DNA of 64,000 nt, taken from assembly GCA_963843645.1 (NCBI GenBank), contig CAWJLE010000002.1, positions 189,909 to 253,908 on the forward strand, read 5' to 3'. Origin of the DNA: an uncultured Chloroflexia bacterium. GTDB lineage: Bacteria; Chloroflexota; Anaerolineae; DAOTYC01. Both the position numbers and the translations under genes were made by a program. This document shows, one piece after another, positions 767-64,000 of the stretch (positions within the stretch are counted from its first letter, which is position 1; each line of letters starts with the position of its first letter). Under the pieces are notes generated by a model, which made no database searches, was not told the DNA's origin, and saw only the letters and a program-made list of their open reading frames with translations.

Positions 767-2068
767 ATGGCGATGACATTGGCGGCACTGGAAGCGGCGG
801 TGGCGGCGGACCTGGACGACGTGGCGCAGGAGCTGTGGACGACCGGGCAGCTGGAGCGGGCGATCCGGAAAGCGTTGATGCGGTACAGCGAAGTGCGGCC
901 GCAAGTAGTGATGGGGACCGTTGCCTCCGCGGCGACCCGCGAGTACTCGCTGTCGTCGCTGACGGGGTTGGTGGACGTGCTGCGGGTGGAGTGGCCGTGG
1001 GTGCAGGGGGCGGGGATGACGTATCCGCCGCCGTACGTGGATTTCGACGTGCTGGACGACCGGATTTCGATTGCGCTGCGGACGGCGACGTGCCCGAAAG
1101 TGACGGACGCGCCGCTGCGGGTGACATACACGAAGACACACACGCTGTTGGGGTTGGACGGGGCGGCGGGGACGACCGTACCGGCCGAAGACGAAGAGAC
1201 CCTGATCGTGGGGGCGTGCGCCTACGCCGCGATCCAGCGGGCGCGGACCGTCGTCGAGGCCGTCAACCCCAGCGCCGACACCCCGGAGCTGTGGCAGAAG
1301 TGGGGGGAAGCCCGCCTGGCGGAGTTCGAAGCTGAGCTGGCCCGCCTGCAGGCCCGGAAGAGCGCCAAGGGACCCGGACGGACGACCGTCGTCGCGCCGG
1401 CCGGCGACCCGCGAACGCTGGGGTACCTGCGCGACCTGCTGGAGCTGGACCTCAGCGACGTCGAGAACGTGGTGTGGTCCAGCTGGGAGCTGGACCGCGC
1501 CCTGCGCAAAGCCCTGCAGGAGTACAGCGCCGTGCGGCCGCAGGAATACATCTCGACGCTGGCGGCAGCCGACAGCCGCGAGTACGCGCTGACCACGCTG
1601 AACGGGCCGCTGGTGGACGTGCAGCGGGTGTGGTGGCCGTACGACGCCGCGGCGCCCGAATATCCGCCGCAGTGGGTGGAGTTCGAGCTGTGGGACGACA
1701 AGACGATCCTGTTTGTGAAGAGCGATCCGGCGCCGCGGTTGGGGGACAAGCCCCTGCGCATCTTCTACACGAAGGTGCACACCATCGAGGACCTCGACGG
1801 GGCCACGGCGAGCACCTACGGCGCCGAGGACGAAGAAATTCTGCTGGCCGGCGCGGCCGGCTACGCGGCGGCGCAGCGAGCGCGGCAGGCCGGCGCCGAG
1901 TCCGCAGCCAAGTGGACCCGGTGGGGGGACGAGCGGCTGCGGGCCTTCAAAGCCGGCCTGGCGGCGATCGCGCGGCGGATCGAGCGGTACCACGACGCCC
2001 GCGTGGCCATCCAGTGGCCGGACCTGGAGGCCTTCGACGATAAGCACGAAGGCAGCAAGTGGGCGTGA
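767..2068 (+). CDS. hypothetical protein with internal tandem duplication (two homologous ~210-aa repeats)
   Basis: 433-aa ORF. Residues 1-~200 and ~225-430 align (…RALRKAL..YS.VRPQ…REY.L..L.G.LVDV.RV.WP…). Codon choice switches from G-ending to C-ending at ~nt 1260. Confidence 0.7.
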   Translation: MAMTLAALEAAVAADLDDVAQELWTTGQLERAIRKALMRYSEVRPQVVMGTVASAATREYSLSSLTGLVDVLRVEWPWVQGAGMTYPPPYVDFDVLDDRISIALRTATCPKVTDAPLRVTYTKTHTLLGLDGAAGTTVPAEDEETLIVGACAYAAIQRARTVVEAVNPSADTPELWQKWGEARLAEFEAELARLQARKSAKGPGRTTVVAPAGDPRTLGYLRDLLELDLSDVENVVWSSWELDRALRKALQEYSAVRPQEYISTLAAADSREYALTTLNGPLVDVQRVWWPYDAAAPEYPPQWVEFELWDDKTILFVKSDPAPRLGDKPLRIFYTKVHTIEDLDGATASTYGAEDEEILLAGAAGYAAAQRARQAGAESAAKWTRWGDERLRAFKAGLAAIARRIERYHDARVAIQWPDLEAFDDKHEGSKWA

Positions 2069-2195
2069 AGCGGTCAGCGATCAGCGATCAGCGGTCAGCG
2101 ATCAGCAACGACAACGACCCTCACGGCCGGTGAGGCTTCTGCTGACAGCTGAGAGCTGAATGCTGACCGCTGAGAGCTGATCGCTCCTCGGGAGG
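2068..2195. repeat. palindromic intercistronic element, copy B (inverted relative to copy A)
   Basis: Reverse complement matches 190-330 (…CAGCATTCAGCTCTCAGCTGTCAGCAGAAGCCTCACCGGCCGTGAGGGTCGTTGTC…). Followed by GGGAGG and ATG at 2202. Confidence 0.7.
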
Positions 2196-2201
2196 TGGGC
2201 G

Positions 2202-2903
2202 ATGGAGAGTGACGCGGCGGAGTACGGGGTGACCGTGGAGGTCGCGACGGCGGCGGCCGGCGCGAAGTGGCGGTGGGTGGCCACGCGGGTGCACCACCTG
2301 ACGGCGGGCGAGAACAACGGGAATCACAATCTGTACGTCACGCTGCTGGACGAGAACCTGGCGCGGGCGCGGACGCGCACGGCGTGGATCGCCTGGCCGA
2401 CGGAGACCACGTACGAGTACACGATCGAAACGATCCTGCAGGACAAGCCGGAGAATGAGGCGGGCGGCAACGCGCCGCTGTGGAAGCACCAGGTCGTGAG
2501 CTGCGGGGTGAACGTGAACTCGGACGAAGTGAGCGACGTCGTGCGTGGGATCCACACCGAGCATCCGGACGAGCCGCCGGCCACCCCTGGGGGGAACCTG
2601 GGCAACACGCTGTATCACCACTCGTTTCTGGTGGAGTTCACGCGGACGGCGGTAGGCGACCCTGAGCCCACGCCGGACCCGGGCCCGGGCGACGAGGACG
2701 ACGAGGCCTCGGGCGACGAGGACATGCCGGCGTTGGGGGACGTCCCGGAACGGTACTGGGGGTGGATCGAGACGGCGAGCCACGCGCTGAGTCTGGCCAT
2801 GTATCGGCTGAACGTGGTGGTGGCGGCCGGGCCGGCGGTCGGAGACCGGGCGGCGCGAGCGGCGGCCGGCGTCGACGAGGTGCGAAAGGCGTTGACAGGT
2901 TAG
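2202..2903 (+). CDS. hypothetical acidic protein (233 aa)
   Basis: RBS GGGAGG. Uniform G-ending codon usage. Asp/Glu-rich segment PDPGPGDEDDEASGDED. Confidence 0.65.
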   Translation: MESDAAEYGVTVEVATAAAGAKWRWVATRVHHLTAGENNGNHNLYVTLLDENLARARTRTAWIAWPTETTYEYTIETILQDKPENEAGGNAPLWKHQVVSCGVNVNSDEVSDVVRGIHTEHPDEPPATPGGNLGNTLYHHSFLVEFTRTAVGDPEPTPDPGPGDEDDEASGDEDMPALGDVPERYWGWIETASHALSLAMYRLNVVVAAGPAVGDRAARAAAGVDEVRKALTG

Positions 2904-2937
2904 AACGTTGGAACGTTGGAACGTGTGAACGAGGTAG
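2899..2937. repeat. tandem GAACGTTG octamer repeats (AACGTT palindrome cores) upstream of the 2940 gene
   Basis: ttagaacgttggaacgttggaacgtgtgaacgagg read directly. A matching array lies downstream of the gene. Confidence 0.55.
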
Positions 2938-2939
2938 TC

Positions 2940-3926
2940 ATGGGCATACACAAGGGGATCGTGCGGGGGTACGAGGCGGGGACGGGGCTGGTGAGCGTGG
3001 AGCTGGTGGGGAGCCATCCGAGCTTCGTGCAAGTGCCGGCCGGGGCGCACCTGGGGGCGGTGAATCTGGTCGACGGGCGGCGGTGCGCGGTGGTGTTCTT
3101 CGACGAGAGTAACGCGCGGGACGGGCTGGTGGTGGCCACGTACGACGTCGTGGCAGACGCGCACCACACCACGCACGAGAGCGGCGGGGCCGACGAAATC
3201 AGCGTGGCGGGGCTGGCCGGCCAGCTGGCCGAGGCGCAGACGCCCCAAGACTGGACCGCTGCCGGCGAGACCTGGACGTACGCCAGCGCCACGACGGTGA
3301 CCGTAGCCGGCGACGTCACGGGCAAGTACGCCGTGGGCGACAAAGTGCGGCTCAAGCAAGGCGGCGCGTACAAGTACTTCTACGTCGTGAGCGCCACGTA
3401 CAGCGCCCCCAACACCACCCTCACCCTGTACGCCGGCTCGGATTACACCGTGGCCAACGCGGCGATCACCGACCAGGCGTACTCGAAGCTGGCCACGCCC
3501 CAGGGCTTTCCGCACTGGTTCTACTACACGCCCACCTGGACCAGCGGGAGCAACCCGCAGCCGGCCAGTCCCGGCCTGCTGCGCGGCCGCTTCACCCTCA
3601 ACGGCCGACTGTTGTCGTTCGAGTTCGTACTCGTGTACGGACCGTCGACGACCGCGGGCACCGGGCAATGGATCTTTCAGCTGCCGTGGTCCATGGCCGC
3701 GTCGGCCTGGTCGTACGACTGGGCGTACAACTTCCGGGCGCAGATCATCGACGCCGGCACGGGCTACTACTCGCCCGGCCTGTGGGGCTATCCGGCCAGC
3801 GCGGCCACGATCTACGTCATGTTCAACAACTCATTCGGCGTGGGCGGCAACCTCCTGCAGGCCACAGTGCCAATGACCTGGGCCAACGGCGACGTGCTGC
3901 ACGTCAGCGGCGAGTACGAGGTGTGA
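2940..3926 (+). CDS. hypothetical protein (β-rich; possible structural/virion-like protein)
   Basis: ORF track 2916..3926. ATG at 2940 preceded by GAGGTAG. Ser/Thr/Tyr/Gly-rich composition. Codon usage shifts G3→C3 at ~nt 3170. Confidence 0.6.
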   Translation: MGIHKGIVRGYEAGTGLVSVELVGSHPSFVQVPAGAHLGAVNLVDGRRCAVVFFDESNARDGLVVATYDVVADAHHTTHESGGADEISVAGLAGQLAEAQTPQDWTAAGETWTYASATTVTVAGDVTGKYAVGDKVRLKQGGAYKYFYVVSATYSAPNTTLTLYAGSDYTVANAAITDQAYSKLATPQGFPHWFYYTPTWTSGSNPQPASPGLLRGRFTLNGRLLSFEFVLVYGPSTTAGTGQWIFQLPWSMAASAWSYDWAYNFRAQIIDAGTGYYSPGLWGYPASAATIYVMFNNSFGVGGNLLQATVPMTWANGDVLHVSGEYEV

Positions 3927-3927
3927 A

Positions 3928-3975
3928 ACGGGCATTGGAACGTTTGAACGTTTGAACGTTTGAACGTTGGACACC
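3928..3975. repeat. tandem GAACGTTT octamer repeats (4 copies) downstream of the 2940 gene and upstream of the 4024 gene
   Basis: ggaacgtttgaacgtttgaacgtttgaacgttgga read directly. Confidence 0.55.
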
Positions 3976-4023
3976 GCCTGTACGTCTGTCGGTGCAGGAC
4001 GTTGGACTGAGAGGAGCAATGAC

Positions 4024-5223
4024 ATGGGCGAGGCAGCCGAAGGGGCGCGACCGCGGACGGCGGGCGAAGTGTGGGCCGCGGCGAAGGCGGAGCTGGCCGG
4101 GCAAATGACGGGCGCCACGTACGAGCTGTACGTCAGCCGGACGACGGCGGCGGCGCCGGACGCGGACGTCCACGTGGGCGGCGAGCTGGCGGTGGTGGCC
4201 GGCAACGCCCAGGCCGTGGAGTGGCTGGACAAGCGCCTGGGGGCGGTCATCACCCGCACCCTGTGCGGCATCCTGGGCGGCACGGTCAACGTCAGCTACC
4301 AGGTAGCCGCGCCGACGCCGGCGCCGGCCCCCGCCGCGGAACTCGGGCAGCTGGAGCGCGAAGTTCGGGTCGTGGATCGGCGGCGGGGGTTCAGCATCCT
4401 GGAGAACGTCATCGTGGACGAGTACCTGCCGCTGATGGGCTCGACCGTGTTCGCCGTGTACGCCCTGTACAGCCGGCTGGTGAACTACGATCAGGGCTAC
4501 GCCTGGCCCTCGTATCGGACCATCTGCGCCCACCTGCACATCGGGCCGGCGACGCTGGCGGAAGCGAACCAGGTCCTGCAGGTCTTGGGGCTGATCGAAG
4601 TCCGCCCGGGCGACGTGCGGAGCCCCAACGCCTATTACCTGCTCGATGCCGGCGCGATCGACGACGCGCGCCAGGCGGCGATTCTGGCGGCCGCGGCGGC
4701 CTGGGTTCCACCCACGGCGGGGAGCCCGGCCCGCAAGCGCATCGAGGGCGGGCTGAATTCCACCCAGGGCCGGGTCGGCGCGCCGTGGAGCGGCGGCGGG
4801 CGCCCTCGAGGAGATCACAGCACGGCGGAGGGCGCTTCTGATCAGAAGCACCCTGTTACTGACGAGAAGCACCCTGCTTCTAATCAGAAGCACCCTGCTT
4901 CTGGCCCAGAAGCAGAACAAGACAAACAAACAGAACAAACACCAATTGTGGGTCCAGAAACTGTTGTTGTGGATGTGGTTGTGGCCCGCGCTGGCCGCAC
5001 GGACAGTGCGTCCAAAACCGTCGACGACGAAATTTCCGGACACACTCTCCTGGACGAGCTGGTGGCGCTGGGCGTGCAACGGCGGACGGCCCTGGACGCG
5101 GTGATGACGAACGACCGCCGGCGCGTGGCCGGCTGGCTGCGCTACACCCTGGAGCAGGACAACCTCCGCAACCCCGCCGGCTTCCTGCTGAGCATGCTGG
5201 GCACCGGCCGCCAGCCGCCGTAA
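4024..5223 (+). CDS. winged-helix replication-initiator-like protein with an in-frame low-GC 21-nt ×3 tandem-repeat linker
   Basis: ORF 3967..5223. ATG at 4024 after GAGGAG. The segment LPLMGSTVFAVYALYSRLVNYDQGYAWPSYRTICAHLHIGPATLAEANQVLQVLGLIEV resembles initiator/DnaD-type winged helices. Repeats encode (D/E/N)QKHPxx at 4840-4905. Confidence 0.5.
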   Translation: MGEAAEGARPRTAGEVWAAAKAELAGQMTGATYELYVSRTTAAAPDADVHVGGELAVVAGNAQAVEWLDKRLGAVITRTLCGILGGTVNVSYQVAAPTPAPAPAAELGQLEREVRVVDRRRGFSILENVIVDEYLPLMGSTVFAVYALYSRLVNYDQGYAWPSYRTICAHLHIGPATLAEANQVLQVLGLIEVRPGDVRSPNAYYLLDAGAIDDARQAAILAAAAAWVPPTAGSPARKRIEGGLNSTQGRVGAPWSGGGRPRGDHSTAEGASDQKHPVTDEKHPASNQKHPASGPEAEQDKQTEQTPIVGPETVVVDVVVARAGRTDSASKTVDDEISGHTLLDELVALGVQRRTALDAVMTNDRRRVAGWLRYTLEQDNLRNPAGFLLSMLGTGRQPP

Positions 5224-5232
5224 GGGAATCGA

Positions 5233-5339
5233 CCGCAGATGAACGCAGATAAAAGCAGATAAAGACAAGAAACAGAAACGACAAAAAAACAATTGCTTTT
5301 GATCTGTCGTTATCTGTGTTCATCTGCGTTCATCTGCGG
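5233..5339. repeat. AT-rich iteron-like palindromic element (GCAGAT[A/G]AA short repeats in inverted arms around an A-rich spacer)
   Basis: cgcagatgaacgcagataaaagcagataaagacaag … ctgtcgttatctgtgttcatctgcgttcatctgcgg. Related copies at 43555-43650 and 45558-45728. Confidence 0.6.
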
Positions 5340-5374
5340 TTAACTGTCTTTCAGAGACGATTGGGGGTGGGGCA

Positions 5375-7711
5375 TTGAAGGCGTGTTCGGACGAGCTGCT
5401 GGCGGCGATGGCGGGGAAGTCGCTGCAGGCGGAGCTGCAGGTGATCGTCGACGATCGGGCGGTGGGGACACCACGGGCGCGGTGGGAAGACTTCTACAGC
5501 GGGCCGCGGGGCTACGGGCACACCGCGTTTCAGCACATGACCGTGGTGGGCAGCACGCTGTTCGTGGTGGCCTTCGTGAACAGCGCGGGGCAGCTCCTGC
5601 GGCAGAAGCTGAGCGAGGGGACGGCGCCGAACGACGCCTGGTGGCGCACGGCCGGCTCGAACGTCAAGGCCGGCACGCCGATCGCCATGGCGGCGGGGCC
5701 GTACGTGCCGGATGCGTTGGTGTTCTGGGTGGACGCCGACGGGCGGAGTATCAAGTATGCCGACGCCTACACCGACGCCCCCAGCGGCGTCGGGACCACG
5801 GTCGACACCCTGGCGGCCGGGCACACCTGCCTCGGCCTGGCCGCGGTGCGGGTCGACTCCGCGGGGGGCTACGGCATCCGCCTGGCCCTGGTGTACGTCG
5901 ACGGCGCCACCGCCAACGGCAGCGGGGCCGACAAGACCGTCAAGGTCAAGCTGACCGCCGACGGCAGCACCTGGAGCGCCGCCATCGACACCGGCATCCC
6001 GGCCGGCCAAAGCTGCTACGGCGTGGCCGCCCTGAACTACGGCACCACGGCCACCCACGCCGGCCTGCACCTGGTGGTGGCCGGCAAGTACCACGACCTG
6101 GCCCAGGGCGACAACGTCAACGTCTACGCCGTGTCGATCGACGTCGCCGCCAACACCGCCGGCGCGACCTGGCTCGGCTGTCCCCTGCAGGCCAGCAAAG
6201 GGGCCACGGTGAACTGGCGGTACCCGAGCCTCATGCCCGAAACCAGCCTGGACCGCTGCCGCTGCTTTCTGCAGCGCTACGACGGCAGCCTGGCGAGCGA
6301 CAAACGCTGGCGGACCGGCAGCGTCGCCGTGCAGACCCTGGCCGATGGGGCCGTCCTCTTCGGCGACTGGATGCCGTTCGACGCGCGCTGCGCCGTGACC
6401 GTCGGCGTGGGCCGCGTGTGGAACTACCTGTGGTGCCTGTGCGGCGACCACATGTGGCGGGCGCCGTTGTACGACGGCGGCGCCACGTACCGCGTCGACC
6501 TCACCGCCGACGTCGTCGGCCTGCAGCACGCCTACTACGACAACACCCTGTTCCTCGAGGACGTCACCAAAGCCGGCTGGGGTTACCTCATCCTCGACAA
6601 CCATGACAACCGCTATCAGAACCTCGGCCAGAGCGGCAAGTACCAGGCCGTCAAACGCGGCGCCCAGGTCGTCATGAAGGTCGGCTACCGCTGGCGTGAC
6701 CCCGCCACCAGCCAGTGGGTCAGCGAAACCAAGATCCTGCCGCCCATGTGGATCTCGCGGATCATTCAGGTCAACAACCCCGCCGTCAGCACGGCCGGCG
6801 GATTACCGCGGCTGAGCGTGCAGGGCGCGCCCAGCCTGGGCGGCTCGTTCATCGTCCTCAGCCTGTACGACGGGTGGGCCATCACCACCCACCGCCTGGC
6901 CAAGTACTACTTCGGGTGGGACAGTGCCCGGCCGCGCAGCGTCCTGCAGGACGCCTTCCTGACCGGCATGGGGTTCACCTACAGCGACGACGGCACGGCG
7001 GCCCTCGGCGTGGCCGAGACCGGCGTCGTGCGGCAGACCCTGCAGGGCAAGCCCTACTGGGCCATGATCAAAGACATCCTCAACACCGTCGGCTGCCGCA
7101 TGAAGTTCTACACCGAAGACGACGAAGAGGCCACCAGCCCCACCGTGCGGGTCCACGTCTTCACCACCACAGCCGCGGACCAGGCCGACGCCGCGTATGG
7201 CGACACCGGCGAGCCCCGCCTGTACGCCAGTATCTACTGGGAGCAAGACCGGGCCAGCTGGCTGCGGTGGATGTGGTGGTACCAGGTCGTCGAGGACGCC
7301 GCGGCCGCGATCGCGTCGGCCGGCTCGCCCCTGGTGGGCGCCCCGATCACCGGCGCGCGGGTCGAGGGCAAAGACGTCGCGGCGGAGTACATCGCCTTCG
7401 ACGAAGTCGAGCGCCTCGGGCTCTACCAGCCGATGACCATCCTCGACGACAACATCACCACGGCCGAGGCCGCCGAAGCGCGGGCCGCGTTCGCGGCCTC
7501 GCAGGCGGTGCAAGGCATGCAGAGCGGCTGCATCCTCGTGCCCGTGCATCCGGGCTTGGAGCTGTGGGACCGCATCGAGATCACCGACGCGAAGGCCTGC
7601 TTCAACCCGATGAGCCGGCGGGTCGCCGGCGTCGAAACGTTTTATGACAAGCGGGGTAAGCGCTGCCAGTACGAGCAGGTGGTGTATCTGTGGGGACTGG
7701 AGCCGTGGTGA
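5375..7711 (+). CDS. large hypothetical protein (778 aa)
   Basis: Long ORF with consistent GC3. TTG/alternative start per ORF track. No recognisable catalytic motif. G3-type codons in the first ~100 codons, C3-type thereafter. Confidence 0.7.
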   Translation: MKACSDELLAAMAGKSLQAELQVIVDDRAVGTPRARWEDFYSGPRGYGHTAFQHMTVVGSTLFVVAFVNSAGQLLRQKLSEGTAPNDAWWRTAGSNVKAGTPIAMAAGPYVPDALVFWVDADGRSIKYADAYTDAPSGVGTTVDTLAAGHTCLGLAAVRVDSAGGYGIRLALVYVDGATANGSGADKTVKVKLTADGSTWSAAIDTGIPAGQSCYGVAALNYGTTATHAGLHLVVAGKYHDLAQGDNVNVYAVSIDVAANTAGATWLGCPLQASKGATVNWRYPSLMPETSLDRCRCFLQRYDGSLASDKRWRTGSVAVQTLADGAVLFGDWMPFDARCAVTVGVGRVWNYLWCLCGDHMWRAPLYDGGATYRVDLTADVVGLQHAYYDNTLFLEDVTKAGWGYLILDNHDNRYQNLGQSGKYQAVKRGAQVVMKVGYRWRDPATSQWVSETKILPPMWISRIIQVNNPAVSTAGGLPRLSVQGAPSLGGSFIVLSLYDGWAITTHRLAKYYFGWDSARPRSVLQDAFLTGMGFTYSDDGTAALGVAETGVVRQTLQGKPYWAMIKDILNTVGCRMKFYTEDDEEATSPTVRVHVFTTTAADQADAAYGDTGEPRLYASIYWEQDRASWLRWMWWYQVVEDAAAAIASAGSPLVGAPITGARVEGKDVAAEYIAFDEVERLGLYQPMTILDDNITTAEAAEARAAFAASQAVQGMQSGCILVPVHPGLELWDRIEITDAKACFNPMSRRVAGVETFYDKRGKRCQYEQVVYLWGLEPW

Positions 7712-43663: not shown

Positions 43664-44689
43664 TTACAGCGCCAGGCGGCGGCGCAGTACGCTGTGCATC
43701 GAGACGGACAGGACGATGATCAGGCCGTAGATGAGCTGGGTCCAGAAGCCGGCCAGGCCCATGGCGACGATCCCGGCGTTGATCGAGCCGATGATGAACG
43801 AGGCGATGAAGGTGCCGAACACGGTGCCCGTGCCGCCGAAGACCGACGTGCCGCCCAGGAACACGGACGATAGCGTGGTCAACAGGTAGCCGTCGCCCAG
43901 GGTCGGCCAGAAGTACAGCACTTCCATACTGGCGACCAGGCCGGAAAACGCGGCCGCGACGCCCATGATGGCGAAGATCCACAGCTTGGCGCGCGAGACG
44001 TTGACGCCCATCAGCCGAGCGCTCTCCACGTTATCGCCCACCAGGTAGGTGTGCGCGCCCAGGCGGGTGCGGTTCAAGATCACCCAGATCAAGATGGCAA
44101 TCGCGATCGCCCACAGCATCTGGCCGGGAATAGTGCCGAACAGCCGGCCCACCAGCCCGTCGTGAAAGATCGTGCCCACCGTTGGGTTGAGCGACCGCCC
44201 GTTGCCGCCCGTGACGACCAGCACGACGCCGCGCCAGAAGAACTGGGTGCCGATGGTCGCCACCAGGGACGGGATGCCCAGCCGGGTGACGATCCAGCCG
44301 TTCAGCAGACCGGCTACCAGCCCGGCCAGCAAGCAGGCCGCAACGGCCAGCTCTAGGCTGCCCGTCGCCCCAAGGGTCAGTGAAAAGGCGGTCATACCCC
44401 AGGCCATCACCGACGGGAAAGACAGGTCCATCTCACCGGCGATGATGAGCATGGTCAGCGGCAGGGCCATGATCGTAAAGAACGGTGTCGAGGACATCAT
44501 GGCGCCGTAGATGTTGAACGACAGAAAGGTGCGAGGGGCCCCCACCAGGAAGATCAGCCAGATGACCAGGCCGACCGCCACGATTCCGATCTGGAGCCCG
44601 TTCCGGCGAACGATCCGCTCCAGAGGGCTGCGCCCGACCCGCGCGGGGGCTGAAACGTGATTCTCTTGCTTTTCCGCTTCAGAAGCCAT
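43664..44689 (-). CDS. sugar ABC transporter permease (RbsC/AraH family)
   Basis: Multi-TM protein. Start MASEAEKQEN with GAGGAAGG RBS, in-frame within ORF 43664..44905. Confidence 0.85.
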   Translation of the reverse strand: MASEAEKQENHVSAPARVGRSPLERIVRRNGLQIGIVAVGLVIWLIFLVGAPRTFLSFNIYGAMMSSTPFFTIMALPLTMLIIAGEMDLSFPSVMAWGMTAFSLTLGATGSLELAVAACLLAGLVAGLLNGWIVTRLGIPSLVATIGTQFFWRGVVLVVTGGNGRSLNPTVGTIFHDGLVGRLFGTIPGQMLWAIAIAILIWVILNRTRLGAHTYLVGDNVESARLMGVNVSRAKLWIFAIMGVAAAFSGLVASMEVLYFWPTLGDGYLLTTLSSVFLGGTSVFGGTGTVFGTFIASFIIGSINAGIVAMGLAGFWTQLIYGLIIVLSVSMHSVLRRRLAL

Positions 44690-44739
44690 ATAAACACCTT
44701 CCTCAGGATGGTTAGGTAAAATCGCCACGCCGTCGCGCG

Positions 44740-45507
44740 TCAGTCCAGGCTGCCTGTCTGAGCCACCCGGTACATCTTCTCCATTAGCTGGTCCAGGGTA
44801 ATGTTCTTGGTGAGGAATTCTCCGGCGACGGATCCGCGATCCAGCACGACCACCCGGTCCGCCACTGAGTAGACGTGGAACACGTTGTGGTCGATGAAGA
44901 TGCACGCCTTGCCGGCGTTGCGGATGTCGCGCACGAACTCCAGCAGCTTCTTGGTCTCGGACAGCGACAGGCCCATGGTGGGCTCGTCCAGGATGATTAA
45001 CTCGGCCTTGAAGTACAGGGCCCGCACGATGGCCACGCCCTGCTTTTCGCCGCCGGAGAAGGAGCCGACGACCGAATCGGGCGTGACGGCGGACGAGGTG
45101 AAGCCCATGGAGCCGACCATCAACTTGTGGGTCTCGGTGCGCATGGCGTGCACGTCCAGAAGGCCGAGCGGCGTCGTCATCTCACGGCCCATGAAGATGT
45201 TGCGCCACAGGGTCTGCTGGTTAGCGAGGGCGCGCTCCTGGTAGACCGTCTCGATGCCGAGGTTGCGGGCCTGGGCCACCGAGTTGTCCACCAGCCTCCG
45301 GCCGTTAAAATAGATCTCGCCCGTCGTAGGCTGGTGGTACCCGGTAATCATTTTAATGAGAGTCGATTTGCCGGCGCCGTTATCGCCCAACAGGCCGAGG
45401 ACCTCGTTTCGACCAACGTTTAAGCTGACGTTCCGCAGCGCGTCGACCTCGCCGAACGACTTGCAGACGTTTCGCAGCTCGATGATGTAATCCTGATCTG
45501 CCATCAC
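44740..45507 (-). CDS. sugar ABC transporter ATP-binding protein
   Basis: Walker A GDNGAGKSTLIKM. LSGGEKQ signature. Walker B ILDEPT. Confidence 0.9.
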   Translation of the reverse strand: MMADQDYIIELRNVCKSFGEVDALRNVSLNVGRNEVLGLLGDNGAGKSTLIKMITGYHQPTTGEIYFNGRRLVDNSVAQARNLGIETVYQERALANQQTLWRNIFMGREMTTPLGLLDVHAMRTETHKLMVGSMGFTSSAVTPDSVVGSFSGGEKQGVAIVRALYFKAELIILDEPTMGLSLSETKKLLEFVRDIRNAGKACIFIDHNVFHVYSVADRVVVLDRGSVAGEFLTKNITLDQLMEKMYRVAQTGSLD

Positions 45508-58488: not shown

Positions 58489-58545
58489 TCCCGTGCGTCG
58501 ACAGGGCCAGCGCCCGCCCGATGGGCGCTGGCCTCCTGGATGACC

Positions 58546-58700
58546 TCCCTCCACGCAGGGGGACCTCTCTCCCGCCTCGGCGGACCCCTCTCCCACCCTC
58601 TCCCCCACAGGGAGAGAGGAGAACATCAACAGCATGGCTCCTCTCTCCCTGTGGGGGAGAGGGTGGGAGAGGGGTCCCCCTGCGTGGAGGGGTTCCGACC
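58546..58700. repeat. MITE-like palindromic repeat, family P3 copy (intercistronic)
   Basis: …CTCTCCCACCCTCTCCCCCACAGGGAGAGAGGAGAAC… palindrome. Confidence 0.75.
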
Positions 58701-58720
58701 ACAACACAAGGATACCCGTG

Positions 58721-59644
58721 ATGACTGAAGCAACGGCAACGAGGGCAACGATGCTGCGGCGGCAGCGGTTCTCCAGGCGAGTCGGCAAATTGATGCCTTT
58801 CCTGTTCGTCGCGCCGACCGTGCTCGTGCTGATGTTCTTGATCCTGTATCCGATCATTCAGGTCTTCTACATGAGCGTGTGGGACAACTACTTCGTGTCC
58901 CCGCATCCCCGCTTCGTCGGGCTGGACAACTACCGGTGGTTGTTCCAGCAAGACGTGTTTCCGCGCATCTTCTCCAACACGGTCCTCTTCACCATCGGGT
59001 CGGTCGCCCTGCACCTGATCTTCGGGCTGGCCCTGGCCGTGCTGCTCTCCGCGAAAATCAACGAACGCGCGCGGGGCATCTTCCGCGGCGTTTTGTTGCT
59101 GCCCTGGACGTTCACCCTGGTCGTCGTGTCCGTGATCTGGCGCTTGATTCTGAACCCCTTCGGCCTGCTGAACGGCCTGCTGTCGGCCGTGGGACTGATG
59201 CAGCTGGCCGCCCCGCTCAACTGGCTCGGGGACCCGAACATCGCTCTGCCGGCGATCATCCTGATCAACTTCTGGGCGGGTTACCCGTTCGTCTTCCTGA
59301 TGCTCCTGGCGGCGCTGCAGAGCGTCCCCGCGGAGCTGTACGAGGCGGCGACCGTGGACGGCGCCGGGGAATGGGCTAAATTCTTCTTCGTGGCGATTCC
59401 GATCATCCGGCCGGTCATCCTCAGCGTTTGCCTGCTGGACGGGATCTGGAGCTTCCGGCTCTTCGACCTGGTGTACCTGACCACCGGCGGCGGCCCGCTG
59501 AACGCCACGCACGTGCTGGCCACGTTCAACTACCAGCTGGCCTTCGAAGGCTTCCAGTTCAGCCGGTCCGCGGCGCTGTCGGTCGTCCTGCTCATCTGCA
59601 CCTCGGTGATGGCCCTCTTCTACTTCCGGTTCCAGAAGGCATAG
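58721..59644 (+). CDS. sugar ABC transporter permease (MalF/UgpA-like)
   Basis: Six TM helices. EAA-like loop …AALQSVPAELYEAATVDGAGEW…. Confidence 0.9.
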   Translation: MTEATATRATMLRRQRFSRRVGKLMPFLFVAPTVLVLMFLILYPIIQVFYMSVWDNYFVSPHPRFVGLDNYRWLFQQDVFPRIFSNTVLFTIGSVALHLIFGLALAVLLSAKINERARGIFRGVLLLPWTFTLVVVSVIWRLILNPFGLLNGLLSAVGLMQLAAPLNWLGDPNIALPAIILINFWAGYPFVFLMLLAALQSVPAELYEAATVDGAGEWAKFFFVAIPIIRPVILSVCLLDGIWSFRLFDLVYLTTGGGPLNATHVLATFNYQLAFEGFQFSRSAALSVVLLICTSVMALFYFRFQKA

Positions 59645-61744: not shown

Positions 61745-62124
61745 TAGCTGATATTCAACGCCCAGCAGAGGCAGGATGGTGGGCAAGCCCGTGGCCAGTC
61801 TCTGCGGTCCCACATTGTACCACATCACGCGCGCTATTCCGAAGCCTGCCCTGCCCTGCGCCCCCCCACCGAGTTGACAGACCATTCGAATCAGGTTACA
61901 TTGACCTGAACCTGGATGTGATCGTACTGACGGCCGCGGCGGCGATGAATTTCACCCGGCGCGACATCGCGTACACGCTGGTGGTCCTGTGGGGGCTGGG
62001 CGGGGTCGCGGTCGAGCACGCCGCCCACCTGGATCACCCATGACACTGGTGGTGCTGACCCTGCCGGCCGCATCGGCGCTCGGACGCGACCCGGATCGGG
62101 AGACGCAGCGTTAGGAGGAACCCC

Positions 62125-62592
62125 GTGCCCAAAGTTGACCTGAACGTTCCCGCCCCCGATTTTACCTTGGCCGATTTCACGGGCCGCACGGTTCGACTGT
62201 CGGATTTCCGCGGCAAGTCGCACGTTCTGCTCGTGTTCAACCGCGGCTTTGCCTGACCGTTCTGCCGACAGCACATGGCACAGTTGTGCCAGGACTACGA
62301 GGAGTTCGTCCGCAGGCAAGCCGAGGTGATCGCGGTCGGTCCGGAAGACGCCCGCGCCTTTGAGGCGTACTGGCGTGAGCTCGACCTGCCCTTCATCGGC
62401 CTGCCGGACCCAAAGGTCTCGGTGCTCAAGCTGTATGGGCAGGAAGTCAACCTGTTCAGACTGGGCCGCATGCCGGCCCAGGTGATCGTGGACAAGGCCG
62501 GCGTAGCGCGCTTCGTGCACTACGGCCACTCGATGTCCGACATCCCGGAGAACGCCGAGGTCCTGGCGTTGCTGGATGGATTGAATGCCTGA
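62125..62592 (+). CDS. thioredoxin-fold redoxin/peroxiredoxin-like protein with in-frame TGA at the first Cys of a CxxC motif (candidate selenoprotein, U-P-F-C)
   Basis: AGGAGG RBS then GTG. …HVLLVFNRGFA-TGA-PFCRQHMAQL… with TGA at 62254-62256 in frame. Codon bias continues through it. Small hairpin UGGCAC-AGUU-GUGCCA lies 20 nt downstream. Confidence 0.55.
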
Positions 62593-62745
62593 TTCCGGCG
62601 GTGCACAGCAATGAGACGAGGCACACTGCCTGTAGTGCGCCTCGTCTCATTGCCACAATATGGGCGATGAACACAACTCAGCCGAGAATTTCCAATCGCC
62701 GTGGGCGCTGAAATCAGGTCTCCGGCAACGACCGGTTAATCCACA

Positions 62746-63249: not shown

Positions 63250-63360
63250 GGTAGTTTCCTCCCGGGACCGAGATGAATGCGTGGCTATTCTACCACAAAC
63301 GGCGGGACTACTGAAGTCTTCGATTGAACCGGGTGTATCCCCGATTTTGGGTGAGATCGT

Positions 63361-63520
63361 GGCCGCGACTTATGTCACCCTGAGGGAGCGCCGTTTGCGA
63401 CCGAAGGGTCTCGCGCGCGAGAAAGGACATTGTCAATCGCACGACTGGGGACATTCCTTCTCGCGCGCTAGACCCTTCGGTCGCAAACGGCGCTCCCTCA
63501 GGGTGACATAAGTCGCAGCC
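63361..63520. repeat. MITE-like palindromic repeat, family P2 copy
   Basis: …ATGTCACCCTGAGGGAGCGCCGTTTGCGACCGAAGGGTCTCGCGCGCGAGAAAGGACATTGTCAATCGCACGACTGGGG…. Confidence 0.75.
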
Positions 63521-63935
63521 GCGATCTCGCCCATAATCGGGGATTTGCCCTGGGCGAGTGACTTCTCTCCGGGCGGTCTCCGATGCCCGCCGGTCCAGGC
63601 GCCGGGCCGGTCTCCGATGCCCGCCGGTCCAGGGCGACCAAGGTCGCGTCTGGATTACGAAGCCCGCCTCCGCGGGCTAACGACAACGAAAATGCAATTT
63701 CCCTGTCGTTGCCGTTAGCCCGCGGAGGCGGGCTTCGTAATCCAGACGCGACCTTGGTCGCCCTGGACCGGCGGGCATCGGAGACCGGCCCGGCGCCTAG
63801 ACCGGCGGGCATCGGAGACCGCCCGGCGCCTAGACCGGCGGGCATCGGAGACCGGCCCGGCGTCTAGACCGGCGGGCATCGGAGACCGGCCCGGCGTCTA
63901 GACCGGCGGGCATCGGAGACCGCCCGGAGAGAAGT
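63512..63935. repeat. composite ~420-bp palindrome: family P1 core (63621-63775) flanked by 2+5 tandem ~34-bp repeats (AGACCGGCGGGCATCGGAGACCGGCCCGGCGTCT) inside an outer inverted repeat
   Basis: Nested inverted and tandem repeats read directly. Confidence 0.7.
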
Positions 63936-64000
63936 CACTCGCCCAGTCGTGGTCTTACGGCCGGCCGCCGGAGGCCTGCTCGAACATGCGGCGCTTGCTG

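Follow-up and report, generated by a model that had tools for sequence, protein, structure and literature searches.

The Prx-like thiol:disulfide oxidoreductases designated 'Prx-like 1', in which a PF00578 domain carries a UxxC motif, constitute an established, high-confidence predicted family of prokaryotic selenoproteins (PMC13188914, PMC2398784, PMC1794560). The initial annotation of the present locus describes UxxC redox motifs as a hallmark of bacterial selenoproteins. The redoxin described here resembles these proteins in its PF00578 domain, in a UxxC motif with selenocysteine (Sec) in the first position, in the existence of Cys homologues, in a SECIS-like hairpin directly after the UGA codon, and in having a function that is predicted (PMC13188914 table, PMC2398784 Table 2, PMC1794560 Table 1). 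The likeness to these proteins, of which WP_010940744.1 is a reference member, is one of domain and motif, and two features set the present proteins apart: they form a clade that is largely confined to Anaerolineae/Chloroflexota, and their hairpin is very short, almost invariant, and dictates the amino acid sequence H-M-A-Q-L-R. The Sec-peroxiredoxins (TxxU) belong to the same Pfam family and share the same fold, with Arg115 of the redoxin equivalent to their catalytic Arg; in those enzymes, however, Sec replaces the peroxidatic Cys, whereas in the redoxin the predicted Sec replaces a Thr three residues upstream, the peroxidatic position is held by Cys, and the conserved Pro is exchanged for Asn39. 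Selenoprotein L (SelL) contains a UxxU motif. The animal protein has been called 'a Prx-like protein' (PMC2398784), and the best NCBIfam match of the redoxin is to the SelL-related redox protein family NF040769 (E 1e-22), a Prx-like family linked to selenoproteins, although the score of 80.7 bits lies below the curated cutoff of 120 and profile positions 2–99 of 173 are matched. Thioredoxin-like proteins, including ResA, TlpA, and the Geobacter 'thioredoxin family protein' 3hdc, have a similar fold and a CxxC motif that aligns residue for residue with U-P-F-C of the redoxin, but their sequence identity to it is only ∼25–31%. ResA and TlpA are membrane-anchored, extracytoplasmic proteins. The SECIS of E. 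coli fdhF is longer than the redoxin hairpin and contains a bulged U, with a G-U in the loop that makes key contacts to SelB. Both elements, the fdhF SECIS and the candidate SECIS of the redoxin gene, follow the UGA closely within the open reading frame and have a loop G-U and a fixed spacing from the UGA; in the redoxin clade, by contrast, conservation is limited to a stem of 6 bp and a loop of 4 nt, and no bulged U is evident.

The redoxin gene lies near the 3′ end of the 64-kb stretch of DNA that was analyzed (hereafter the window). Its features are as follows.

61874..61902, plus strand: sigma-70-like promoter candidate, TTGACA-17 nt-TACATT, ∼220 nt upstream of the start codon.
62113..62119, plus strand: Shine-Dalgarno sequence AGGAGGA, read directly from the sequence, with a 5-nt spacer to the GTG at 62125.
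62125..62592, plus strand: complete coding sequence of the UxxC redoxin, 155 residues, with a GTG start and a TGA stop at 62590–62592.
62254..62256, plus strand: in-frame UGA, the predicted selenocysteine codon (U44); the next base is C (UGA-C context).
62263..62265, plus strand: TGC codon of Cys47, the second redox residue of U-P-F-C and the putative resolving residue.
62276..62291, plus strand: SECIS-type hairpin UGGCAC-AGUU-GUGCCA, with stem arms 62276–62281 and 62286–62291 and loop 62282–62285.
62467..62469, plus strand: codon of Arg115, equivalent to the peroxiredoxin catalytic Arg (R116 in AhpE).

The reading frame from 62125 to 62592 is interrupted once, by the TGA at 62254–62256, which is situated within the sequence FNRGFA-(TGA)-PFCRQH. 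The initial annotation had proposed that translation starts at an RBS-supported GTG and runs through this TGA with unchanged codon bias, and its coordinates are right: AGGAGGA precedes the GTG by 5 nt, and the GC content of third codon positions is 0.77 in the 35-codon stretch that precedes the TGA and 0.83 in the 35-codon stretch that follows it. The read-through product matches the Pfam family AhpC-TSA (PF00578) with an E value of 4.2e-21 (75.6 bits against a cutoff of 26) over residues 9–129, in an alignment that crosses the TGA, and the Pfam family Redoxin with an E value of 4e-15. The promoter candidate at 61874..61902 (plus strand) agrees with the consensus at 10 of 12 positions in a consensus scan, which is weak evidence. 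A genuine gene thus occupies 62125 to 62592, and its product is a small redox protein resembling peroxiredoxins.

Relatives of the gene were sought in one genome per species (GTDB); 467 were confirmed, and inspection covered the best 80 of these. The 82 loci fetched comprise 80 distinct ones (L011, for example, repeats the contig of L002), and TGA occupies the aligned codon in 82 of 82, each of which gives one continuous tblastn alignment through the TGA. Further TGA forms at this codon were found in four additional sequences (L087–L090), including metagenome contigs. The fetched loci represent ∼80 species, with protein identities to the window gene of ∼69–83%; L001, at 98.7%, is a copy of the window's own gene. 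Among the best 80 of the 467, the relatives derive almost entirely from metagenome-assembled genomes of Anaerolineae/Chloroflexota, and two cultured carriers of the TGA form are present, Longilinea arvoryzae KOME-1, on NZ_DF967972.1, and Leptolinea sp. HRD-7, on AP024710.1. One TGA form, on contig PLTW01000224.1 (L079), is labelled 'Actinomycetota bacterium', possibly as a result of mis-binning or horizontal transfer.

The UxxC motif is present in all fetched relatives, and the base that follows the UGA is always C. UGA-C is the weakest context for termination. On either side of the TGA, conserved amino acids are specified by differing synonymous codons, from which it follows that both halves of the gene are under protein-level selection. 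PFCxxH, encoded by the six codons that separate the TGA from the next ATG, is likewise conserved in frame as protein. A small number of homologues carry Cys at the same codon, encoded by TGT in L083 and L086 and by TGC in L084 and L085. The alignment of orthologues at this codon, which the initial annotation had suggested as a check, therefore returns TGA in 82 of 82 loci (80 distinct) together with rare Cys forms, and its view that a substitution error is less likely here can be put more strongly: with the same TGA in 80 distinct loci and protein selection beyond it, error and pseudogene are excluded. In the Cys-form locus L084 (1442–2404), a reverse-transcriptase gene (RVT_1) immediately precedes the redoxin gene, and a gene with a DSBA domain is located further upstream.

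The hairpin downstream of the TGA begins with its first paired base at the 20th nucleotide after the TGA, and its loop starts 25 nt after the UGA. Searches for bacterial SECIS elements consider loop starts 16–37 nt after the UGA, a range that contains this value, and the rule used in bacterial SECIS prediction, a G within the first two loop positions, is satisfied by AGUU. The folding energy of a 28-nt segment is −10.4 kcal/mol (z −1.9); at this z value a 6-bp hairpin in a single sequence is not beyond chance, so that the argument depends on comparing the relatives. The segment AUGGCGCAGUUGCGCCA hardly varies among 81 distinct sequences. The loop AGUU, with G-U at loop positions 2–3, is invariant, and the codons that form the hairpin are frozen where the same amino acids elsewhere in the protein use several codons:

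Ala52: GCG in 78 of 80 sequences in the hairpin; Ala elsewhere uses 4 codons, 1.3–1.85 bits.
Gln53: CAG in 81 of 81 in the hairpin; Gln elsewhere uses both CAG and CAA.
Leu54: TTG in 81 of 81 in the hairpin; Leu elsewhere uses 5–6 codons, 1.45–2.3 bits.
Arg55: only CGC or CGT in the hairpin (C-G or wobble U-G); Arg elsewhere uses 5–6 codons, 1.4–2.2 bits.

Overall, conserved four- and sixfold degenerate codons outside the hairpin have codon entropies of 1.2–2.3 bits. Where the stem does change, it changes on both sides. One G-C pair is replaced by A-U in the window and in L020, exchanging Arg55 for Cys so that the window reads MAQLC; another pair undergoes the same compensatory replacement in L077, with Ala becoming Thr; and in the more distant TGA forms L089 and L090 the element reads UGAUGC-AGUU-GCAUCA, two pairs having changed on both sides with the substitution of Met for Ala and His for Arg. 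G-U wobbles are found in 13 further sequences. In an alignment of 85 sequences, 98.6% of the hairpin cells are paired, double changes affect three of the six pairs, the observed covariation is reached by 0 of 500 shuffles, and all slid controls collapse. Judged by these alignments, the hairpin at 62276–62291 is under selection at the RNA level. The suggestion in the initial annotation that this small hairpin could be a minimal SECIS gains in substance, given its frozen synonymous sites and compensatory pairs.

The SECIS covariance models proposed there as a check gave no such agreement: there was no SECIS family match in Rfam, either for the whole window at gathering thresholds or for 62000–62700 at E values up to 10, where only spurious miRNA-model matches to a downstream 20-bp hairpin were returned. 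A search with the hairpin pattern gave 5 matches against 3.85 expected by chance, none of them behind an in-frame TGA. Among the Cys forms, the hairpin is kept in two of four; in L085 it is lost, with HAAK in place of HMAQ, and in L086 it is weakened by replacement of TTG with the synonymous TTA, which leaves the closing pair open. This pattern fits relaxation after loss of the UGA, although the argument is weak because four sequences are few and two of them keep an intact hairpin. Two further observations concern the same region. RNAalifold draws an additional 3-bp mini-hairpin (UGC....GCA; 62263–62273, columns 10–20 of alignment A1) between the UGA and the main hairpin, which is too short to judge, and codon 49 ends in G in at least 90% of sequences regardless of the residue encoded, a hint of a further constraint on the RNA.

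The alignments also place the motif within the fold. The positions that define the active site correspond to those of known proteins as follows.

Asn39: the conserved Pro of peroxiredoxins (BCP 5enu, AhpE).
U44: the Thr of PxxxTxxC in BCP 5enu and AhpE; the first Cys in the thioredoxin-like proteins 3hdc and ResA.
Cys47: the peroxidatic Cys in BCP 5enu and AhpE; the second Cys in 3hdc and ResA.
Arg115: the catalytic Arg of peroxiredoxins (R116 in AhpE).

Cys47 is invariant in alignment A2, and at least 90% of family members share Arg115. The counterpart of U-P-F-C in 3hdc is C-P-Y-C. An AlphaFold (AF2) model was inspected for the Cys homologue P0006, which is 68% identical to the window protein; in this model (pLDDT 88), the CxxC is situated at the start of helix 45–56, and the nearest solved folds are Bcp1, Bcp4, and AhpE at a TM score of ∼0.8, followed by thioredoxin-like proteins. 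Of the residues of a canonical peroxiredoxin (Pro, Thr, peroxidatic Cys, Arg), the redoxin retains Cys47 and Arg115, with Asn39 in place of Pro and the predicted Sec44 in place of Thr. Relative to the TxxU of Sec-peroxiredoxins, Sec is displaced three residues upstream of the peroxidatic position. A placement of Sec at the peroxidatic position itself was rejected: Cys47 holds that site, and U44 aligns with the Thr of TxxC. The initial annotation had located the TGA exactly where thiol peroxidases and redoxins carry their reactive Cys, which holds for redoxins, where it corresponds to the first Cys of CxxC, and fails for thiol peroxidases, in which the peroxidatic site is that of Cys47. Together, the alignments and the model indicate that the protein combines the fold of a peroxiredoxin with a redox motif of the thioredoxin type whose first residue is the predicted Sec. 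The N-terminus (MPKVDLNVPAPDF...) contains no hydrophobic signal or anchor segment that is obvious by eye. The window and L002 do not share synteny, and the neighborhood thus offers no clue to the substrate.

These data support the proposal of the initial annotation that the gene encodes a candidate selenocysteine (U-P-F-C) protein, given the TGA in all 80 distinct loci, the Cys homologues, and the selected hairpin; we put the probability that residue 44 is selenocysteine, with the UGA recoded via the SECIS-type hairpin, at about 0.88. The product would be a cytoplasmic, 155-residue thiol:disulfide oxidoreductase of peroxiredoxin fold, with the active site Sec44-Pro-Phe-Cys47. During translation, the UGA at 62254–62256 would be read as selenocysteine when the hairpin (6-bp stem, AGUU), acting as a bacterial SECIS, recruits SelB with Sec-tRNA(Sec) to the ribosome paused at the UGA, and the ordinary TGA stops of the genome, that of the redoxin gene included, would lack such a hairpin and lead to termination. 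The selenolate of Sec44 is predicted to lie at the N-terminus of the first helix, where CxxC proteins of the thioredoxin type have their attacking Cys, and would act as the nucleophile on an oxidized substrate, which may be a disulfide, a sulfenate, or a peroxide. Cys47 would then resolve the adduct to give a selenenylsulfide with Sec44, and re-reduction by a thiol reductant would recycle the protein.

A more specific version of Sec insertion, which we consider doubtful, is that the clade has a distinct minimal SECIS of its own, consisting of a 6-bp stem, an invariant AGUU, and a fixed 19-nt spacing without a bulge, that would be read by a Chloroflexota-type SelB together with an 8/4 tRNA(Sec). 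In such a system the RNA element may fix the HMAQLR motif and force amino acid changes whenever the stem mutates. Less likely still is a variant of it in which recoding depends on the hairpin but yields Cys, or yields Sec or Cys according to the selenium supply.

The apparatus for Sec insertion was sought in the DNA at hand. ARAGORN detected no tRNA-Sec in the 64-kb window, which contains no tRNA at all, or in 60 related loci; a Pfam scan of the 20 largest ORFs of the window gave no AIRS/SelD, SelA, or SelB domains; and tblastn with approximate sequences of E. coli SelD and SelB as queries gave no match in 416 kb comprising the window and related loci. The tblastn result is weak, because the queries were approximate and the sequence covered is a small fraction of multi-megabase genomes. 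Indirect support, at the level of the class, comes from Anaerolinea thermophila and Caldilinea aerophila, cultured Chloroflexi now placed in the Anaerolineae. SelD, SelA, and SelB are encoded by strain UNI-1 of the former, which has 4 selenoproteins, and by the latter, which has 3 (PMC5029168 Tables S1, S2), and a tRNA(Sec) of the unusual 8/4 type has been reported in Chloroflexi (PMC5389517). Within the literature searched, no report was found of selenium (75Se or MS) in a protein of this Anaerolineae clade. As for recoding elsewhere in the window, 261 in-frame TGAs flanked on either side by open frame were ranked; those ranking higher are antisense to real genes, a candidate at 44163 lies opposite the permease gene at 43664–44905, and no second read-through candidate was found among them.

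Three other accounts of the TGA were weighed against selenocysteine. Recoding of the UGA to Cys, which we regard as improbable, would proceed in a SelB-like, hairpin-dependent manner through a tRNA(Sec)-like tRNA(Cys) with a UCA anticodon (selC*/SelB*), or would leave the residue to be set by the selenium supply. It has precedent in some anaerobic bacteria, where a selC* tRNA(Cys) with an opal anticodon, accompanied by a second selB copy, can decode UGA as Cys (PMC5389517); sequence data do not separate Sec from Cys at residue 44, and the Cys forms of the redoxin are evidently viable. The reported selC* genes, however, are from Firmicutes, Thermodesulfobacteria, Nitrospirae, and Proteobacteria and not from Chloroflexi, in which a true tRNA(Sec) is found, and every genome with selC* also had the full Sec apparatus (PMC5389517). 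Moreover, with Cys as the product, a TGA with a costly hairpin would bring no gain over a simple TGC, and yet TGA is found in 80 of 80 distinct loci. At a still lower probability, the TGA could be a true stop that divides the locus into two products, a peptide of 43 residues and an independent protein of 105 residues initiated from the ATG at 62275, with the hairpin serving re-initiation, mRNA stability, or regulation. Exactly this split is annotated by gene callers, and the internal ATG (M51) is invariant. Against this, the split would cut the Prx/Trx fold between strand β3 and the active-site helix and remove or strand the conserved U-P-F-C motif, the PFCxxH codons between TGA and ATG are conserved as protein in frame, the Cys-containing homologues are single proteins of 155–160 residues, and the ATG at 62275 is located within the hairpin with no Shine-Dalgarno sequence upstream.

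That the TGA is a sequencing or assembly error, a recent nonsense mutation in a pseudogene, or a sense codon for Trp or Gly is effectively refuted. The contig is metagenome-derived, the initial annotation had noted indel-type disruptions elsewhere in the window, and some databases translate the TGA as Trp; nevertheless, 80 distinct genome loci share the TGA, as do additional metagenome contigs, and selection on the protein continues past it. A reassigned code is further contradicted by the use of TGA in the window, where it is the commonest stop (32 of 59 predicted genes) and ends the redoxin gene itself, and by both Trp forms that were checked (P0012 and P0024), which give a stop under code 11. 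Selenocysteine remains the preferred identity of residue 44.

The Trp forms are one of several ways in which public gene calls render this gene. A search of 5.8 billion proteins was carried out and the best 120 matches (P0001–P0120) were classified: the TGA is read as Trp in 57, the protein is truncated after the TGA in 51, Cys is present in 7, Arg or Leu stands at the site in 3 (P0038, P0058, P0027), and 2 are frameshifted. The Arg and Leu forms are possibly point mutants of the TGA. Among matches annotated as full length, Trp predominates at the site. For P0012 and P0024, the DNA has TGA at the site and the database protein is not obtained under code 11, which suggests that genes on short contigs were called with a code in which TGA means Trp. 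Dozens of matches are 105 residues long and span only the C-terminal 68% of the query at 83–100% identity, as expected of gene calls that begin at the ATG just past the same TGA. Public gene calls thus either split the redoxin gene into pieces of 43 and 105 residues, the latter from the ATG at 62275, or place Trp at the TGA.

The redoxin gene and hundreds of its relatives are therefore mis-annotated in public databases, and inventories of redox proteins in Anaerolineae miss a selenoprotein that is apparently widespread in the class (467 relatives, the best 80 all with TGA). Anaerolineae are common in anaerobic digesters and sediments. The gene marks the organisms that carry it as likely users of selenium. 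As bacterial selenoproteins of the UxxC type are already known and are routinely split or truncated by gene callers, the find is a fairly ordinary one; it changes no concept, UxxC Prx-like selenoproteins having been predicted by comparative genomics for ∼20 years, and for that reason should come as a small surprise to the specialist. Its most notable aspect is the near-invariance across ∼80 species of a short hairpin that dictates the overlapping HMAQLR motif, a clean example of overlapping constraint in which an RNA recoding signal, as we interpret it, shapes the protein sequence that it overlaps.

Immediately downstream of the gene, the window contains a second and much stronger hairpin:

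62608..62653, no strand assigned: near-perfect 20-bp hairpin with arms 62608–62627 and 62634–62653 and a 6-nt loop, 16 nt after the redoxin stop.

This element (inverted repeat I9; −37.3 kcal/mol, z −5.1) is located between two convergent genes and is probably a terminator or an mRNA-end structure; it has no T-run, which is why the terminator scan missed it. At the other end of the window, four large ORFs of high GC3 (433, 336, 418, and 778 aa) occupy 767–7711 on the plus strand, with no Pfam match at E values up to 1e-5. Beyond the terminator-like hairpin, a dense nest of repeats extends from 63337 to 63951. It contains direct repeats of ∼34 nt (core GACCGGCGGGCATCGGAGACCG), with at least four tandem copies at 63763–63927 and inverted copies at 63571–63633, as well as two long inverted repeats, one with 121-nt arms (63569–63689 and 63706–63826, 98%) and one with 87-nt arms (63337–63423 and 63458–63544, 94%). 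Repeated translations of similar appearance occur near 58540–58860.
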